Source: Minisyncoccota bacterium
GTDB lineage: Bacteria; Patescibacteriota; Minisyncoccia; Phycocordibacterales; UBA12079
DNA length: 19,115 nucleotides
Assembly (NCBI GenBank): GCA_023140255.1
Contig: JAGLLX010000014.1
Span: forward strand, 1-19,115
Direction of reading: 5' to 3'
The stretch's first letter is position 1, and each line of letters opens with the position of its first letter. The position numbers were made by a program, and so were the translations under genes. Below, piece by piece: positions 3,881 through 16,823 of this stretch. The notes under the pieces are model-generated. The model saw only the letters and a program-made list of their open reading frames with translations, was not told where the DNA came from and did not search any database.

Positions 3881-3942
3881 ATCTTATTAACATCTAAAAA
3901 CTTGCATATATTTTATTTATATTGTATTACTGTTCCAATGCT

Positions 3943-4092
3943 TCCTGTTAGAAATTTGGAGAAAATAAATTATTTTTTCAAAAATACTAAATACGGGAAC
4001 AAAAAATTATCAGTTTAATTTAAAGATGTTTATTAAAAGTAATATGGGACTTGTCCCGTTAGAGATACTTTTAATACAGTGTCTCTAACAGA
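3943..4092 (+). promoter_or_regulatory. Upstream module of topA, homologous to the tyrS upstream module (16635-16748). Distal motif TCCTGTTAGAAATTTGG (3943-3959), an AT-rich conserved block CAGTTTAATTTAAAGAT..TTATTAAAAGTAA, then GGGACTTGTCCCGTTAGAGATAC and an imperfect inverted repeat whose 3' arm (4079-4092) ends at the topA ATG
   Basis: 4046-4078 (GGGACTTGTCCCGTTAGAGATACTTTTAATA) is identical to the minus-strand sequence upstream of tyrS. Arm CCCGTTAGAGATAC (4055-4068) pairs with GTGTCTCTAACAGA (4079-4092) over 11-12 positions, including one G-U wobble. Confidence 0.5.
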
Positions 4093-6321
4093 ATGAAAAA
4101 ATTATTAATTGTTGAGTCACCAGCAAAATCAAAAACTATATCAAAATATTTAGGAAGCGACTATGTCGTGGAATCTTCTGTTGGACATATTAGAGATATT
4201 CCTAAATCAAACTCTAAAAAAGCAAACGCTGTTGATATTGAAAATAATTTTAAGCCTAATTACGAAGTAATTAAAGGTAAGGAAAAAATAATAACAACTC
4301 TAAAAAGAGAAGCTAAGAAAGCTGACGAAGTTTTGCTCGCAATGGACCCAGACCGTGAAGGAGAAGCTATCGCTTGGCATATTGCTGAAGTTTTGAAATT
4401 ACCTAATGCACAAAGAGTAGTCTTTAATGAAATTACAGAAGAAGCTGTTCAAAAGGCTATTTTACACCCACGAGATATTGACCAAGATTTAAGAAAAGCA
4501 CAAGAAGCTCGTCGTGTTTTAGACAGACTTTTTGGTTATGGATTAAGTGGATTAATTTGGAAAAAATTACGTTACGGTTTATCAGCTGGAAGAGTTCAGT
4601 CCCCTGCTTTACGAATCTTAATGGAACGAGAAAGATTAATTAGAGCTTTTGAACCTGAAGACTACTGGACAATTACAGCCGAAGTTAAAGATCAAACAGG
4701 AAATATGTTTTCTTTAATTTGTTCTGAAGAACCTAGAGATGAAAAGAAAGTAGCTAAAATCACAAAAATTGCTGAGCAAGAAACTTGGAAAATTTTAGAA
4801 ATCAAAGAAACTAACACAAAGAGATCTCCTCGAGCTCCTTTTATAACATCAACATTACAACAAACAGCTAGCTCTAGATTAGGATACTCCCCTAGCCAAA
4901 CAATGATGCATGCACAAAGGCTTTATGAAGCTGGTTATATTACTTATATGAGAACTGATAGTATTACTTTAAGTGCTAATGCTCAAAAGCAAGCTCAAGA
5001 ACTAATTACAAAAGATTACGGAAAAAAATATTTAGAACCAAGAGTGTTTAAATCAAAATCAAAAAATGCTCAAGAAGCCCATGAAGCAATTCGTCCTTCT
5101 AATTTATCTACAGCTAATGCAGGAAAAACAGAAGAACAACAAAAACTATACTCTTTAATTAGAAATAGAACTTTAGCTTCTCAAATGAGTGATGCTAAAT
5201 TATTAAAAACTAAAATAATTGCGTCTGTTGGGAAAAGAGGAAAAGAAGACATAGATTTTCCTTATTTTGAAATTAATGGATCAAGATTATTATTTGATGG
5301 TTGGTTAAAAATTGACCCTGCTGCACGAGGAGAAGATGTTGAATTACCAGAACTTCAAACTGAAGATATCTTGAGTTTACTTAAAATATCAACTGAGGCT
5401 AAACAAACAACTCCTCCAAATAGATATTCTGAAGCTTCTTTAATTAAAGAGTTAGAAAAAAGAGGTTTAGGTCGTCCAAGCACCTATGCTACAATTACCC
5501 GTACTCTTTATGACAGAGGTTATGTAGAAAAAATAAATAAAGCCTTACATCCAACAGACACAGGTGATGCTGTAAGCTCATTTCTAGAAAATCACTTTGA
5601 AAATTATATTAGTGATGATTTTACTGCCGAAATGGAAAATGAATTAGATGAAGTAGCAGAGGGAAAAGGAACTTATGAAAAAGTTTTAACTGATTTTTAC
5701 ACACCTTTTGTTAAAGAAATTAAAAACAAAGAAGGAATTGAAAAAATATCTAATCTGGGTCCTGCTGAAGATAAATACAAATGTCCAAAATGTGGAGCAG
5801 GAATGGTTTATAAACTAGGAAAATCTGGTAAATTTATTTCTTGTGAAAAATTCCCTGACTGTGAAGGTGCATTAACTCTTGAAGGTAAAGAAATTGAAGG
5901 TCCAAAAGAAACTGGGGAAAAATGTCCTGATTGTAAAGACGGTAAATTAGTAATTCGTGAAGGGAAATTTGGAAAATTTGTTTCTTGTTCTAATTATCCT
6001 AAATGCAAATTTATTAAAGAAGATGAGGGAGAGAAAAAAAAGAAAATGACAGGAGTAAAATGTCCTGATTGTGAAGATGGAGAAATGATGGAAAGACGAG
6101 GTCGTTTTGGAATTTTTTATTCTTGTTCAAATTATCCAAAATGTAAAAATGCAATTAAAGCAAAACCCACTGGTAAAATTTGTGATTACCCGAGTGATGC
6201 AAAAGCAGGACAACCTTGTGGAGCTTTAATGATGGAAGGAACTAAGACTATTCCAGAAAGATGCTCTAATAAATCTTGTCCTAACCATAACCCACATAAA
6301 TTAAATAAATTAAAGGAATAA
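4093..6321 (+). CDS. topA: DNA topoisomerase I (type IA) with four C-terminal C4 zinc-ribbon motifs
   Basis: The N-terminus MKKLLIVESPAKSKTISKYLG matches the E. coli TopA N-terminus and the Toprim DPDREGEAIAWH motif is present. The C-terminus has repeated CPxCx..C..C ribbons: CPKCG..SCEKFPDC, CPDCKDG..SCSNYPKC, CPDCEDG..SCSNYPKC and a fourth C4 cluster. Confidence 0.95.
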   Translation: MKKLLIVESPAKSKTISKYLGSDYVVESSVGHIRDIPKSNSKKANAVDIENNFKPNYEVIKGKEKIITTLKREAKKADEVLLAMDPDREGEAIAWHIAEVLKLPNAQRVVFNEITEEAVQKAILHPRDIDQDLRKAQEARRVLDRLFGYGLSGLIWKKLRYGLSAGRVQSPALRILMERERLIRAFEPEDYWTITAEVKDQTGNMFSLICSEEPRDEKKVAKITKIAEQETWKILEIKETNTKRSPRAPFITSTLQQTASSRLGYSPSQTMMHAQRLYEAGYITYMRTDSITLSANAQKQAQELITKDYGKKYLEPRVFKSKSKNAQEAHEAIRPSNLSTANAGKTEEQQKLYSLIRNRTLASQMSDAKLLKTKIIASVGKRGKEDIDFPYFEINGSRLLFDGWLKIDPAARGEDVELPELQTEDILSLLKISTEAKQTTPPNRYSEASLIKELEKRGLGRPSTYATITRTLYDRGYVEKINKALHPTDTGDAVSSFLENHFENYISDDFTAEMENELDEVAEGKGTYEKVLTDFYTPFVKEIKNKEGIEKISNLGPAEDKYKCPKCGAGMVYKLGKSGKFISCEKFPDCEGALTLEGKEIEGPKETGEKCPDCKDGKLVIREGKFGKFVSCSNYPKCKFIKEDEGEKKKKMTGVKCPDCEDGEMMERRGRFGIFYSCSNYPKCKNAIKAKPTGKICDYPSDAKAGQPCGALMMEGTKTIPERCSNKSCPNHNPHKLNKLKE

Positions 6322-6688: not shown

Positions 6689-6715
6689 AATAAATTTTGC
6701 AAAGCAAAATTTATT
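6689..6715. promoter_or_regulatory. Perfect 12-bp inverted repeat AATAAATTTTGC-AAA-GCAAAATTTATT after secG; a weak AT-rich terminator or an operator
   Basis: Arms 6689-6700 / 6704-6715 read directly. Confidence 0.35.
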
Positions 6716-6753
6716 CTTAAATCTTATTTCTTAAATCTTAAATCTTAAATCTT
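6715..6753 (+). repeat. Tandem heptamer repeat (TCTTAAA)n, about 5.5 units (TCTTAAA TCTTATT TCTTAAA TCTTAAA TCTTAAA TCTT), ending 6 nt before the ATG of the solute-binding-protein gene
   Basis: Units at 6715-6721, 6722-6728, 6729-6735, 6736-6742, 6743-6749 and a partial unit at 6750-6753. Confidence 0.7.
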
Positions 6754-6758
6754 TTGTT

Positions 6759-11675: not shown

Positions 11676-11710
11676 ACAAACCTGCCGGCATAGGCAGGTT
11701 TGTCATTTTT
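11676..11710. terminator. Bidirectional rho-independent terminator between the convergent MFS gene and aspS: 11-bp stem (AAAAACCTGCC/GGCAGGTTTGT) with A-run upstream and T-run downstream
   Basis: Stem 11676-11686 / 11693-11703 with loop GGCATA. + strand tail CATTTTT (11704-11710). The reverse strand reads hairpin then GTTTTTG. Confidence 0.6.
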
Positions 11711-11721
11711 AGTCTTATTTT

Positions 11722-11768
11722 AAGCCCTGCTAAATGGCTCACTTTTTTGAGCCATTTAATTTTTTAGC
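11722..11768 (+). repeat. Second copy of the REP-like element (AAGCCCTGCTAAATGGCTCA...), here a 10-bp hairpin TAAATGGCTC/GAGCCATTTA with a T-rich loop, followed by ATTTTTT
   Basis: The 20-mer at 11722-11741 matches 962-981 with one mismatch. Hairpin arms 11731-11740 / 11749-11758. Confidence 0.45.
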
Positions 11769-15422: not shown

Positions 15423-16634
15423 TTATTTCTTTAATCTAATAATTTTTCTTCCCAATTTCAATAAAATTGAATCTTCGTTATTAAAATCTAGCTGATACTT
15501 ATAATCAGTAATTTTTTCTTCTCCAATTTTTACAGCTCCTTCATCTACCTTTCTTCTTGCTTCACTTTTAGAACAAGCTAAATTTAATCCAACTAATATT
15601 TCCAAAATATCTTTTCCTTCTTTCAAACTAATTTCCTGAATATTTTCCGGAACCCCTTTGTTTTGGAATTGAATTTTAAAATTTTCTTCAGCTTTTTGTG
15701 CTTCTTCAGTATTATAAAAAATTTCTACTAAATTAAAAGCTAACTCCATCTTCAAATCTCGAGGATTTACAGAACCATCTTTTATTTTTTTTCTCATCAC
15801 TTCTATTTCTTCTAATGGTTTGTTTGTTATTAATTCAAATGTATTAGCTATAAACCCATCTGACAAAGACATTACAATCCCATATATATTTTCTGGTTTT
15901 TCATCCAAAAAGATAGCATTTCCTTCTGATTTACCCATTTTCTTTCCTACATCATCAGACAAAAGCTTCATTGTTAAAATGAATTTTTCTCGTTTATTAA
16001 TTGTCTTCTGTAAATCTCTTCCTCTCATCATATTGAACATCTGATCATTTCCTCCTATTTCTAAATCAACGTCCATTGCCACAGAGTCATAAGCCTGAGC
16101 TAAAGGATACAAAAACTCATGGAGATAAATAGGCTTTTCATCTTCTAATCTTTTCTGAAACATATCTCTTTGTATCATCTGTTGTACAGTAAAATGAGAA
16201 GATAGTTCAATTAAATCTCTAAAATTTAATTTATCGTTCCATTCACTATTATATTTTATCTCAGCTGGATTTTCTCCATCAAAATTTAAAAAAACTGAAG
16301 CTTGTTTTTTATAATGTTTTGCATTTGCTTCAATTTCCTCCTTGGTTAATTTAGGACGTGCAGCACTTTTATCTGTTGGGTCACCAATTAATGCAGTAAA
16401 ATCCCCCACTAAAAAAATTACCTTATGACCAAGTTTCTGGAATTCTGATAGTTTTTTTATTGAAATAGCATTTCCTATATGCAAAGAAGGTGCCGTAGGA
16501 TCATATCCACAATACAGCTTAATTTGTTTACCTGACATCAAAAGTTTTTTTAATTCTTCTTTTTCTGAAAAGATTTGTTCTACCCCCTTAGTTAAAATCT
16601 CATCTATAGCTTTTTCATCTGTATTTATTTTCAT
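15423..16634 (-). CDS. tyrS: Tyrosine--tRNA ligase with C-terminal S4 domain
   Basis: LYCGYDPTAPSLHIGN (HIGH) and KMGKS motifs. The N-terminus aligns with the E. coli TyrRS N-terminus. The C-terminal S4-like RNA-binding segment is present. Confidence 0.9.
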   Translation of the reverse strand: MKINTDEKAIDEILTKGVEQIFSEKEELKKLLMSGKQIKLYCGYDPTAPSLHIGNAISIKKLSEFQKLGHKVIFLVGDFTALIGDPTDKSAARPKLTKEEIEANAKHYKKQASVFLNFDGENPAEIKYNSEWNDKLNFRDLIELSSHFTVQQMIQRDMFQKRLEDEKPIYLHEFLYPLAQAYDSVAMDVDLEIGGNDQMFNMMRGRDLQKTINKREKFILTMKLLSDDVGKKMGKSEGNAIFLDEKPENIYGIVMSLSDGFIANTFELITNKPLEEIEVMRKKIKDGSVNPRDLKMELAFNLVEIFYNTEEAQKAEENFKIQFQNKGVPENIQEISLKEGKDILEILVGLNLACSKSEARRKVDEGAVKIGEEKITDYKYQLDFNNEDSILLKLGRKIIRLKK

Positions 16635-16748
16635 CCCGTTAGAGATACTTTATTAAAAGTATCTCTAACGGGACAAGTCCCTTACTTTTAATAACTATCT
16701 TTAAATTAAACTGGTAATTTTTAGCCCCGCCAAATCTCTAACGGGATA
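16635..16748 (-). promoter_or_regulatory. Upstream module of tyrS, homologous to the topA module. A perfect 14-nt inverted repeat CCCGTTAGAGATAC (16635-16648) / GTATCTCTAACGGG (16659-16672) with a 10-nt AT loop abuts the tyrS start codon. Upstream of it are GGGACTTGTCCC, the conserved AT-rich block, and a distal third copy of the motif (minus-strand TCCCGTTAGAGATTTGG at 16731-16747)
   Basis: Reverse complement of 16632-16681 is GGGACTTGTCCCGTTAGAGATACTTTTAATAAAGTATCTCTAACGGGATG. The first 32 nt are identical to 4046-4077. The block CAGTTTAATTTAAAGAT(A/G)(G/T)TTATTAAAAGTAA is also shared. Confidence 0.5.
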
Positions 16749-16823
16749 CATATTAAGTATTGTAACACAAAATAAAAACAGCTCAATGTACTATATGGGA
16801 TATATTATATTCAAGGATAACTC

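Follow-up and report, generated by a model that had tools for sequence, protein, structure and literature searches.

Near-identical modules at the start codons of topA and tyrS are very probably copies of a MITE family common in Patescibacteria

Results

The near-identical modules that precede topA and tyrS in the window (the whole 19,115-nucleotide stretch of DNA analysed here) are very probably copies of a miniature inverted-repeat transposable element (MITE) inserted at the start codons of the two genes, and they belong to a family that is widespread, common in Patescibacteria and apparently undescribed. They bear the marks of a transposable element, namely terminal inverted repeats (TIRs), a 4-bp target duplication, tandem re-insertions and insertion polymorphism, and the element is shared by topA and tyrS because both genes start with ATGAA and not because they are co-regulated.

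Two copies of one element precede topA and tyrS

The topA-side element spans 3943-4093 on the plus strand (151 nt) and the tyrS-side element 16746-16634 on the minus strand (113 nt), and these two copies of one element are 91-93% identical over aligned blocks, which bears out the original prediction of near-identical 5' modules. Repeat detection, with which pairwise alignment agrees, matched 4043-4099 with 16628-16684 (57 nt, 91% complementary) and 4002-4042 with 16682-16722 (41 nt, 93% complementary). The longest exact run common to both, GGGACTTGTCCCGTTAGAGATACTTTTAATA (4046-4076 = 16681-16651), is real but 31 nt long and not 32 nt as first given. The distal motif described earlier is also present in each copy, as TCCTGTTAGAAATTTGG at 3943-3959 and TCCCGTTAGAGATTTGG at 16746-16730, matched up by a seven-sequence alignment in which all seven Pacebacteria-lineage copies are homologous over their full length. 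As claimed, only two indels separate the window copies, one of 3 nt (TAT) and one of ~34 nt (3960-3993), and an inverted-repeat arm stands directly before the ATG in both (..CTCTAACAGA-ATG and ..CTCTAACGGG-ATG), the last base of the element being the A of the downstream gene's ATG. Likewise, no Shine-Dalgarno sequence was found, a GGAG-like motif being absent before topA and tyrS but present before band7 and orf210 in the same window. The core 11-mer CCGTTAGAGAT, allowing up to two mismatches, has nine matches in the window compared with 3.5 ± 1.9 in shuffles, a count reached by 0/200 of these, and six of the nine fall inside the two modules.

Each module is preceded by an extra ATG (3938-3940; 16751-16749) that lies 7 nt 3' of a -10 box. 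On the topA side the stretch 3902-3930 (+) probably works as the topA promoter, judging from its -35 box TTGCAT (3902-3907), 17-nt spacer and -10 box TATTAC (3925-3930), and was missed by a consensus scan because the -10 hexamer ends in C. It is followed, after the 7 nt read from the sequence, by the old topA ATG and a decayed left target duplication TGCT (3938-3942, +; right copy TGAA), this ATG opening a 26-codon upstream ORF (uORF), MLPVRNLEKINYFFKNTKYGNKKLSV (3938-4018). The element itself then consists, on the plus strand, of the left TIR TCCTGTTAGAAAT (3943-3955), a lineage-specific 34-nt insert (about 3960-3993), CGGGA as partner of the left end (3994-3998), a conserved core (4002-4027), GGGACTTG (4046-4053), an internal third TIR copy (4054-4066) and the right TIR GTCTCTAACAGAA (4081-4093), whose final A is the A of the topA ATG, with bases 2-5 of topA (4094-4097, +) forming the right target duplication TGAA.

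The tyrS side repeats this layout on the minus strand. A promoter scan identified a tyrS promoter at 16759-16786 (-), with a -35 box TTGAGC, a 16-nt spacer and a TG-extended -10 box TACAAT (16764-16759), 7 nt before the upstream ATG, and in L005, a relative without the element, tyrS begins directly behind the same promoter. The old tyrS ATG and the left target duplication TGTA (16747-16751, -; right copy TGAA) come next, the ATG opening a 16-codon uORF, MYPVRDLAGLKITSLI (16751-16701). Within the element we located the left TIR TCCCGTTAGAGAT (16746-16734), CGGGG (16729-16725), the conserved core (about 16722-16697), GGGACTTG (16681-16674), the internal third TIR copy (16673-16661) and the right TIR ATCTCTAACGGGA (16646-16634), which again ends on the A of the gene's ATG, and bases 2-5 of tyrS (16630-16633, -) are the right target duplication TGAA.

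Insertion sites differ between relatives to the base

Conservation at orthologues had been set beforehand as a test of the modules, and here the element proved to be absent from the tyrS site of L005, L007 and L013, whose TyrRS orthologues are 82%, 76% and ~76% identical, and from the topA site of L013 (TopA orthologue 83% identical). At tyrS the window has the element and so does L009, whose copy is either independent or diverged, while an orthologous insertion occupies the topA site in the window, L011 and L012. The dnaJ site is filled in L009 and empty in L007, L011 carries the element at rnr where L012 and L014 lack it, and at all four genes the insertion polymorphism is exact to the base. 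The empty tyrS sites read ..TACAAT-atttagt-ATGATA.. in L005 and ..TAAAAT-atttat-ATGAAAATA.. in L007. In element-free relatives a -10 box lies ~7-12 nt before the ATG and the mRNA is therefore leaderless or nearly so. The pattern TTGCA(T/A)-17-TATTA(C/A) is kept before topA in L011, L012 and the empty-site L013, and the old promoter is kept in all three species with the ancient topA insertion. The upstream ATG has been lost in L012, and the old copies (L012 and the window topA copy) have lost the upstream repeat.

The same element precedes dnaJ, rnr, pheT, gatB, eno, clpB, prf, priA and other genes in other genomes, so the proposed joint control of topA and tyrS was not upheld. What stands of the shared cassette is that it is discrete, duplicated and ends at the start codon; it is not a regulon device for these two genes.

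The family has paired ends and a covarying hairpin

A scan of species-representative genomes with the TIR pattern gave more than 117 loci at the least, and those listed include a single-cell genome (L107, L126). Copy number is two in the window, at least six in JAHITU01 and at least four in JAGLSI01. Elements are mostly 100-120 nt long (family range 53-234 nt), within the limit of about 300 bp for a prokaryotic MITE, and end in 13-nt TIRs, YCCCGTTAGAGAT ... ATCTCTAACGGGR, a sequence set by the search pattern, from which part of its apparent invariance across phyla comes. The identical 13-nt ends found in Omnitrophota, Planctomycetota and other phyla suggest a wide horizontal spread of the mobilising transposase, and the paired-TIR pattern gave no matches in viral contigs. 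The coding capacity is limited to uORFs of 6-38 codons, with no transposase ORF, and because stop codons come within 6-38 codons, in-frame translation does not pass through the window copies or most T-ended ones.

The target duplication is 4 bp and usually TGAA, with an exact direct repeat (mostly TGAA/TTCA) at 70/156 of the elements listed compared with about 1 in 256 expected by chance. The duplications of the window copies are imperfect, with agreement at three of four bases for tyrS (TGTA/TGAA) and two of four for topA (TGCT/TGAA). We also detected tandem re-insertions at the regenerated target in L070 (279-676), L066, L099 and L113, including arrays of two or three elements before one gene in L070.

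The TIR helix is 98.8% paired in sampled copies. In the window, the tyrS copy pairs at 13/13 positions (TCCCGTTAGAGAT / ATCTCTAACGGGA) and the topA copy forms standard pairs at 11/13, including one compensated change from C-G to U-A and one G-U. G-U pairs compared with A-C mismatches in this helix number 14 and 9, which does not separate RNA- from DNA-level selection. A 7-bp subterminal hairpin adjoins the gene-proximal TIR and is present at that end only. This hairpin covaries strongly, with compensatory changes in 6/7 pairs (72 cells in total), at least 18 different stem sequences and 0/500 shuffles reaching its score. In canonical copies the 13-14-bp TIR helix is predicted to stack on this hairpin to give a helix of ~21-22 bp, while in the window copies, with folding z-scores of -3.6 and -6.95, the third TIR copy is predicted to pair instead with the right TIR in a local hairpin of 12 or 21 bp.

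T-ended copies are concentrated at start codons

The unusual feature of the T-ended subfamily is that it is almost confined to start codons: 51 of the 72 T-ended Patescibacteria copies listed have as their last base the start-codon A of an ORF (ATG start) of 80 codons or more. The expectation that copies would not be scattered in non-5' contexts thus holds for this subfamily. The C-ended copies, in Omnitrophota, Planctomycetota and others, lie near -35 boxes, near Shine-Dalgarno sites or in-frame in prepilin genes, as in L113, where a 57-nt unit regenerates the G-F-T cleavage motif.

The target of T-ended Patescibacteria copies is A|TGAA, in the opening codons of a gene without a Shine-Dalgarno sequence, and the ATG is rebuilt from the element's terminal A and the duplicated TG. 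Among the matches listed, 42 of 45 exact-duplication sites reconstruct to (A/G)TG[A/G/T]A, and 39 of these 42 have A at -1. The downstream proteins are unrelated housekeeping enzymes in which Pfam domains start within the first 25 residues, most within 12. A Shine-Dalgarno-like motif occurs in 0/44 upstream flanks (2.8 expected) and a -10-like hexamer 5-9 nt upstream in 20/44 (9.7 expected); a -10 box so placed at about half of the sites indicates that the mRNA was probably leaderless. In 21 cases the end with the hairpin points towards the gene, and in two it points away (33 and three in a simpler test). The upstream ATG is kept in 41/55 copies, always opening M-x-P-V-R-D, and the uORF stops are scattered 4-156 nt upstream of the gene AUG, with 6/41 uORFs ending at the right-TIR UAA. 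Read from the sequence, the three frames of the right TIR give a UAA 4 nt before the AUG, an overlapping AUGA and an open frame.

Database searches and excluded identities

An Rfam search (E <= 1) of the window and eight loci with canonical copies returned no relevant family, the single overlap being a chance microRNA-like hairpin, and a tRNA/tmRNA scan of the window found none. T-box, riboswitch and ribozyme identities were rejected, since none of the models matched and the module is not conserved where orthologous genes begin. An integron attC site, considered for GTTAGAG/CTCTAAC, was set aside because its core sites stand in the opposite order and there is a 4-bp duplication. IS200/IS605 PATE and REP/RAYT elements have no TIRs or duplication, carry subterminal hairpins and insert 3' of a fixed tetra- or pentanucleotide; here there are clear TIRs, a duplication and a subterminal hairpin at one end only. 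The stretch ATGAATCCC..TTTGG matches what we take to be the IS10 outside end at 16/22 bases, but IS10 makes 9-bp duplications, and the ATGAA here is flank and not element.

The sequence flanking 131 loci, ~1 Mb in all, yielded neither a transposase nor an autonomous element carrying these TIRs; where two TIRs lie 0.3-4 kb apart there is no ORF between them, solitary TIRs led to no autonomous copy, and clustering of 506 flanking ORFs gave no recurrent transposase-like ORF. Literature searches for the start-codon MITE concept and the TIR sequence returned nothing relevant, and the terms 'start codon', 'leaderless' and 'Patescibacteria' are all absent from the text of a review of prokaryotic MITEs published in 2024. 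While a MITE is a known kind of element, a start-codon family that rebuilds the ATG with its own terminal base is, as far as we searched, undescribed in the literature and Rfam.

Discussion

We propose that the element is moved by cut-and-paste transposition, with a DDE-type enzyme, perhaps one like those of IS1380 or piggyBac, supplied in trans. Once the element has inserted, the old ATG stays beside the promoter and opens a short uORF (M-x-P-V-R-D...), and the gene would still be transcribed from its old promoter, making the element a structured 5' leader. The module is almost certainly transcribed as such a leader, behind which the gene would be translated. The location at start codons may reflect the enzyme's choice of target, or the survival of harmless insertions alone.

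Among functional models for how the gene is then expressed, an RNA-processing step drawn by analogy is possible, and it is the one that we tentatively prefer. The composite helix would be cut or removed in the RNA, as with RNase III at Correia elements, and removal would leave a very short unstructured leader, usable by a ribosome accustomed to leaderless mRNAs. RNase III is known to cleave mRNA at Correia element TIRs (PMC10969869, PMC2649163). A cut by RNase III within the 13-bp helix would leave a leader of ~8-12 nt and not a true leaderless end.

Rather than the old promoter, the gene-proximal end of the element could itself carry an outward promoter, each insertion bringing its own leaderless or short-leader mRNA that starts at or a few bases from the junction A, or ~25 nt upstream in the hairpin. 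We consider this rather unlikely, although the strong orientation bias favours it, as do the two- and three-copy arrays tolerated in L070 (simplest if expression needs only the copy nearest the gene), a hexamer resembling TAAGAT, TAATAT or TAATTT immediately 5' of the hairpin in about half of canonical copies, and the ability of Correia elements to create promoters at their ends (PMC2649163). However, the hexamer is poor or missing in the other half, the positions -13 to -7 from the junction A are an invariant TATCTCT without the canonical -11A/-7T pair in register, the promoter scan found no promoter inside either window copy, and three species with the old topA insertion have kept the original promoter. 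It is improbable, too, that translation begins at the old AUG at the 5' end, with ribosomes reading the M-x-PVRD uORF and so melting the left TIR arm and freeing the regenerated AUG, or re-initiating there after termination. The frequent retention of the upstream ATG would suit such coupling, and the right TIR supplies the UAA or overlapping AUGA for it, but that retention may merely mean recent insertion, L012 keeps element and gene with no upstream ATG, and triple tandem copies would require three re-initiations in succession. The scatter of the uORF stops also led us to reject coupling through a fixed stop as a general rule.

That a conserved operator palindrome or riboswitch-like leader co-regulates topA and tyrS is highly implausible: the near-identity of the two copies, the palindrome adjoining the ATG and the folding z-scores speak for it, while its absence from orthologous sites of close relatives, its presence at many unrelated genes, the target duplications and tandem copies, and the lack of any Rfam family or T-box match speak against it. 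We give equally little credence to an intron-like or bypass gap, in which the TIR helix juxtaposes both AUGAA copies and leaderless reading is restored, either by cleavage and rejoining of the RNA or by a hop of the initiating ribosome from the first AUG to the second. T4 gene 60 and mitochondrial byp elements have as their hallmark matching take-off and landing codons on either side of a structured gap, which the identical AUGAA at both junctions, brought together by a 13-14-bp helix, recalls, and tandem copies are tolerated. Nevertheless, Rfam detected no ribozyme or intron family, no stop codon directly follows the first AUG, an initiator-tRNA hop is without precedent, the direct repeat is fully explained by transposase target duplication, and it has lost its upstream member in the old copies. 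A bolder version of the transposition reading, in which T-ended elements are targeted to +2 to +5 of leaderless or Shine-Dalgarno-less genes and then neutralised in the RNA, appears doubtful to us. Targeting could occur, for example, by recognition of the initiation complex or of open-promoter DNA, and neutralisation by precise cleavage at the 21-22-bp helix to give leaderless mRNA, or by a hop or rejoining between the AUGAA copies.

With transposition to start codons as the preferred reading, topA, tyrS, pheT, gatB, eno, prf, clpB and others are essential genes behind a structured leader of 100-240 nt with no ribosome-binding site, a placement that, in the reduced genomes of Patescibacteria, is predicted to point to an unrecognised route of mRNA processing or initiation. 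Leaderless genes seem to be common in Patescibacteria. The insertions amount to repeated natural tests of what a leaderless start requires. They also matter for annotation and for motif and regulon discovery in metagenome-assembled genomes, where near-identical upstream regions of this kind mean transposition and not co-regulation. Were targeting and RNA neutralisation both true, the element would be a mobile 'start-codon cassette', intron-like for the start of translation, and its insertion and precise excision could serve to tune Patescibacteria housekeeping genes reversibly.

Comparison with known systems

T-box leaders of aminoacyl-tRNA synthetase genes are likewise structured leaders upstream of tyrS; unlike them, the module is missing at orthologous tyrS genes and present at non-synthetase genes. 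As to the source of transposition, IS1380 and piggyBac ends begin CC(C) with a short TIR and an A/T-rich duplication of 4 bp (piggyBac, TTAA) or 4-5 bp (IS1380). The present ends, (Y)CCCG with a 4-bp T-N-N-A duplication, fit a derivative of this type, and what we take to be the 13-bp TIR of piggyBac, CCCTAGAAAGATA, is identical to CCCGTTAGAGATA here at 9/13 positions. However, the target is T-N-N-A and not strictly TTAA, the terminal base before CCCG is T or C, and because no transposase gene was found the link is a lead only.

ERIC/IRU, RUP, BOX and the 'putative mobile promoters' are short co-transcribed intergenic repeats that alter mRNA stability or supply promoters, and like the present family they explain near-identical upstream regions of unrelated genes, although none is reported as targeting start codons or leaderless genes. 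Rickettsia palindromic elements and other in-frame MITEs survive in essential genes with the frame or product preserved (PMC10969869). The C-ended copies in prepilin genes behave in this way, whereas in the window copies and most T-ended ones it is the rebuilt start codon, and not in-frame translation, that keeps the gene intact.

The Correia elements of Neisseria (CREE/NEMIS) share with the present family a non-coding length of ~100-150 bp, TIRs, many copies near gene starts and co-transcription with the neighbouring gene, the last being predicted here. CREE have 26-bp TIRs and a TA duplication, are known only from Neisseria and lie at variable distances from genes. The present family differs in its 13-bp TIRs of unrelated sequence and its 4-bp duplication (TGAA and relatives), on which grounds we rejected a Correia repeat enclosed element as its identity, and its T-ended members end exactly on the start-codon A. 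RNase III acts on the TIR hairpin of CREE, and promoters can arise from these elements (PMC2649163, PMC10969869). For the possible handling of the present leader, Correia elements are the best functional analogy.

Duplicated modules upstream of topA and tyrS

The 5′ regions of topA (topoisomerase I; ORF 4093–6321, + strand) and tyrS (tyrosyl-tRNA synthetase; ORF 15423–16634, − strand) were near-identical, with repeat detection and alignment giving collinear blocks of 57 nt (91%) and 41 nt (93%). As originally noted, both modules (3943–4093, + strand; 16746–16634, − strand) carried the distal TCCYGTTAGARATTTGG motif, differed by indels of 3 nt and ~34 nt, and ended in an inverted-repeat arm adjoining the ATG. 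The longest run of exact identity was 31 nt rather than the 32 nt claimed (4046–4076 = 16681–16651), and neither gene had a Shine-Dalgarno (SD)-like motif, which is found at two other window genes.

We compared the window with the corresponding loci in genomes that encode its nearest homologues of TyrRS and TopA. In the relative L005, tyrS (82% identity) had the same promoter as in the window, TTGAGC-16-TACAAT, with the ATG 7 nt later and no module. Likewise, tyrS of L007 (76%) and L013 lacked the module, with 6 and 12 nt, respectively, between the -10 box and the ATG, and these mRNAs are predicted to be leaderless or nearly so, while L009 tyrS (78%) had, at precisely this position, a module of 115 nt that has diverged in sequence. 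The topA module was found in the window, L011 (93% TopA identity) and L012 (89%), and was missing in L013 (83%), where TTGCAT-17-TATTAA is followed by the ATG after 9 nt. The element also adjoined the start codons of dnaJ in L009 and rnr in L011, with the dnaJ site empty in L007 and the rnr site empty in L012 and L014. The original observation was correct, but its interpretation as a topA/tyrS regulon is not supported.

All seven copies of this Pacebacteria lineage aligned over their whole length, with the common layout ATG-NN-TCCYGTTAGAGATTTGG-(0 or 34 nt)-CGGGA-AAAAATTAYCA.TTTAATT.AAGAT-hairpin-TATCTCTAACGGG-ATG. Filled sites have an ATG at both flanks, the upstream one being decayed at topA of L012. 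Between tyrS and trpS, we also observed a MazE/PemK toxin-antitoxin pair in L007 (11531–12105), L009 (11469–12049) and L013 (15091–15704), and only a 52-codon ORF in the window.

Examination of window gene starts (smc 3464, MFS 10499, asnS-like 13213, Na/Ca exchanger 14217, trpS 15218 and rnj 8580) showed that most genes had no SD motif and several had a -10-like box 6–8 nt before the ATG, with others further upstream. GGAG was present only at band7 (16945) and the next ORF (18078), and the organism therefore seems to rely mainly on leaderless mRNAs. The MFS start, ATGAAA behind TGTTATAAT-7, is an unoccupied potential target.

Other repeats were also present. A second family (TTTTAAGCCNTGCTAAATGGCTCA..TGAGCCRTTTA, 49–52 nt, 80–81% identity, internal palindromes) occupied 3′ intergenic sites at 950–1060, downstream of smc, and 11707–11760, where the MFS and asnS/aspS-like genes converge, and resembles either a hairpin repeat of the terminator type or a further small mobile element. 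About four copies of a short tandem repeat, TCTTAAA, lay directly 5′ of the SBP_bac_5 gene start (6700–6758). Away from any start codon, the rpsK-rpsD gap of L007 (GCA_900089805.1, 625–790) contained a TIR-loop-TIR hairpin of 47 nt (CCCTGTTAGAGAT..ATCTCTAACGGGG), bordered at each end by CGAG and nested in a larger palindrome, ggactgcttcgtcgc...gcgaggcacgaagcagtcc.

A family of small mobile elements

Using the pattern CCGTTAGARAT-N62–92-ATCTCTAACRG on one genome per GTDB species, we identified paired terminal inverted repeats (TIRs) at no fewer than 117 loci, with ~0.5–10 matches expected by chance, as estimated from the information content of the pattern. Across the relatives and the matches listed, 156 elements were detected, and 70 had an exact 4-bp direct repeat directly outside YCCCG...CGGGR. 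Among the matches listed this duplication was mostly TGAA/TTCA, with TAAA, TTGA/TCAA, TGGA/TCCA, TAAG and TTAG also seen. There were double and triple tandem insertions into the regenerated target (L070 279–676, L066, L099 and L113), and individual genomes held at least 4–6 copies. Since two of the loci belong to a genome obtained from one cell, binning did not create the element as an artefact. A MITE is defined by this combination of small size, TIRs, a duplicated target, multiple copies and polymorphic insertion sites, and the topA and tyrS modules are very probably MITE copies inserted at start codons. Such a pair alone is ordinary; the family that it reveals is not. An autonomous partner was not found among the listed loci, nor was the element found in the viral contigs scanned.

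In L070 (Paceibacterota STC_102), a single leaderless promoter (TGCTACAAT-7-ATG) is followed by the three tandem elements, with ATGAA at each junction between them, and then by an exonuclease gene; two more copies occur in the same 8 kb. Furthermore, the same housekeeping starts were occupied in distant Patescibacteria: dihydrouridine-synthase-like genes in L084, L106 and L114, topA in the window and the distantly related L126, gatB in L117 and L130, and clpB in L096, while in L046 a clpB-like start is preceded at 7 nt by a C-ended copy. This reflects either recurrent insertion at the same ATGAA or very old insertions.

Insertion at start codons

Copies with the T-ended form (TCCCG...CGGGA) were found in Saccharibacteria, Paceibacterota/Parcubacteria, Nomura-, Zambryski-, Yanofsky-, Lipton- and Taylorbacteria and related groups. 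In 51 of the 72 T-ended copies listed, the terminal A and next two bases formed the ATG of an ORF of ≥80 codons; most of the others were tandem copies, lay at the edge of a locus or preceded an ORF below this length. Among T-ended matches listed with an exact duplication, the target reconstructs to (A/G)TG[A/G/T]A in 42/45, and the unduplicated preceding base was A in 39 of these 42. The start codon is thereby rebuilt by the element's terminal A and the duplicated TG. The proteins encoded downstream have intact N-termini and no function in common (GT4 glycosyltransferase, PriA, ComM-like ATPase, PheT, exonuclease, EngB, release factor, ClpB, enolase, GatB, TopA including L126, TyrRS, DnaJ and RNase R). 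No SD-like motif occurred in 44 upstream flanks of the matches listed (2.8 expected), while a TAnnnT hexamer lay 5–9 nt upstream in 20 (9.7 expected), which, with the A|TGAA target, indicates insertion into the TGAA of ATGAA at SD-less, often leaderless starts.

C-ended copies (CCCCG...CGGGG; Omnitrophota, Planctomycetota, Nitrospirota, Deltaproteobacteria and some Patescibacteria) lay inside -35 hexamers (TTGA|CA), just 5′ of GGAG (TAAG|GAG, TAAA|GGAG), at start codons turned into GTG (nine cases among the matches listed), and in frame inside prepilin genes, all of which are harmless places. The position at start codons may reflect either target choice or selection; the near-exclusive location of T-ended copies there, compared with these varied sites, suggests more than passive survival. 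In an Omnitrophota MAG (L113, 5947–6056 and 6422–6474), C-ended 53-nt copies sit in frame at the G|FT cleavage motif of prepilin-like genes, one as a tandem pair. The unit including the duplication is 57 nt, or 19 codons; its TIR encodes (T)PLEI, a mimic of pilin TLVEI, and its right-end GGGG plus duplicated TTTA/TTCA restores G-F-T.

RNA structure and gene expression

In minimum-free-energy folds of most copies, a 14-bp TIR helix closes the whole element and takes in the first two bases of the gene's AUG, and in many the left-end UCCCG pairs locally with a downstream CGGGA. Among the matches listed, a hairpin of 6–7 bp lay directly inside the gene-proximal TIR in 26/45 canonical copies (exactly 7 bp in 20), at the end toward the gene in 21 versus 2 cases, or 33 versus 3 by a simpler test. 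It is G-C closed, with a 3–5 nt loop and at least 18 different stem sequences. The stem of this hairpin covaried, with two-sided changes in six of seven pairs (72 cells; 37-sequence alignment), a score reached by 0/500 shuffles, and slid controls falling to 35–45% pairing; the TIR helix was uninformative because it is invariant. Together, TIR helix and hairpin would form a composite helix of ~21–22 bp. The window and L012 copies have GGGACTTG and a third TIR copy in place of the 7-bp hairpin. In predicted folds this insert and the right TIR form a local hairpin, 12 bp long at topA and 21 bp at tyrS, where it includes the AUG, with a compensatory G-C to A-U change in L012.

CTTG (CAAG on the other strand) also recurs beside one TIR with TRAA at the opposite flank at many loci (among them L045, L059, L067, L086, L108, L128, L018 and L055), so these copies have no matching duplication. 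Its form in the window (4046–4053 and 16681–16674), L012 and L055 is (A)AGGGACTTG-TCCCG, and GGGA-CUUG-UCCC could form a tetraloop hairpin. The tetranucleotide may stem from nesting or truncation of a copy, or may belong to an asymmetric end of greater length.

The old ATG persists 7 nt after the -10 box as the start of a uORF that reads M-x-P-V-R-D before a variable tail. The old promoter probably still drives the gene, since three species that share the ancient topA insertion have all kept it, including one whose upstream ATG is gone, and as a promoter scan predicted no consensus promoter inside the topA or tyrS window copies, the element would be a structured, SD-less 5′ leader. Correia elements have TIRs that RNase III processes in the RNA (PMC10969869, PMC2649163), and the composite helix may be cut likewise, leaving a short leader free of structure that a ribosome competent for leaderless mRNAs could translate. 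Among functional models we prefer this one tentatively, at somewhat less than even confidence. Tandem arrays are tolerated, so the gene-proximal copy appears self-sufficient, and uORF stops are scattered; both favour processing, or an outward-facing promoter within the element, over uORF-coupled unfolding or re-initiation at the gene's AUG, although such a promoter is at odds with the negative scan. RNA-level excision, or translational bypass between both AUGAA copies, is a further alternative to processing.

Comparison with known systems

Rfam gave no relevant family match at E ≤ 1 in the window or in eight loci with canonical copies, and the T-box did not match the element. A 2024 review of prokaryotic MITEs held no start-codon, leaderless or Patescibacteria case, and full-text literature searches for the start-codon MITE concept and the TIR sequence found nothing. 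The family is widespread and apparently has not been described before; it is specialised for the starts of genes that lack an SD motif and carries an RNA-type hairpin that covaries. Its ends and 4-bp A/T-rich duplication resemble those of IS1380/piggyBac-type transposons, which we treat as a lead only. In its mode of action the element is comparable to MITEs of the Correia or ERIC type that are embedded in a 5′ UTR, and the C-ended in-frame copies resemble Rickettsia palindromic elements; however, it lies outside all three families because its TIR sequence, duplication and hosts differ.
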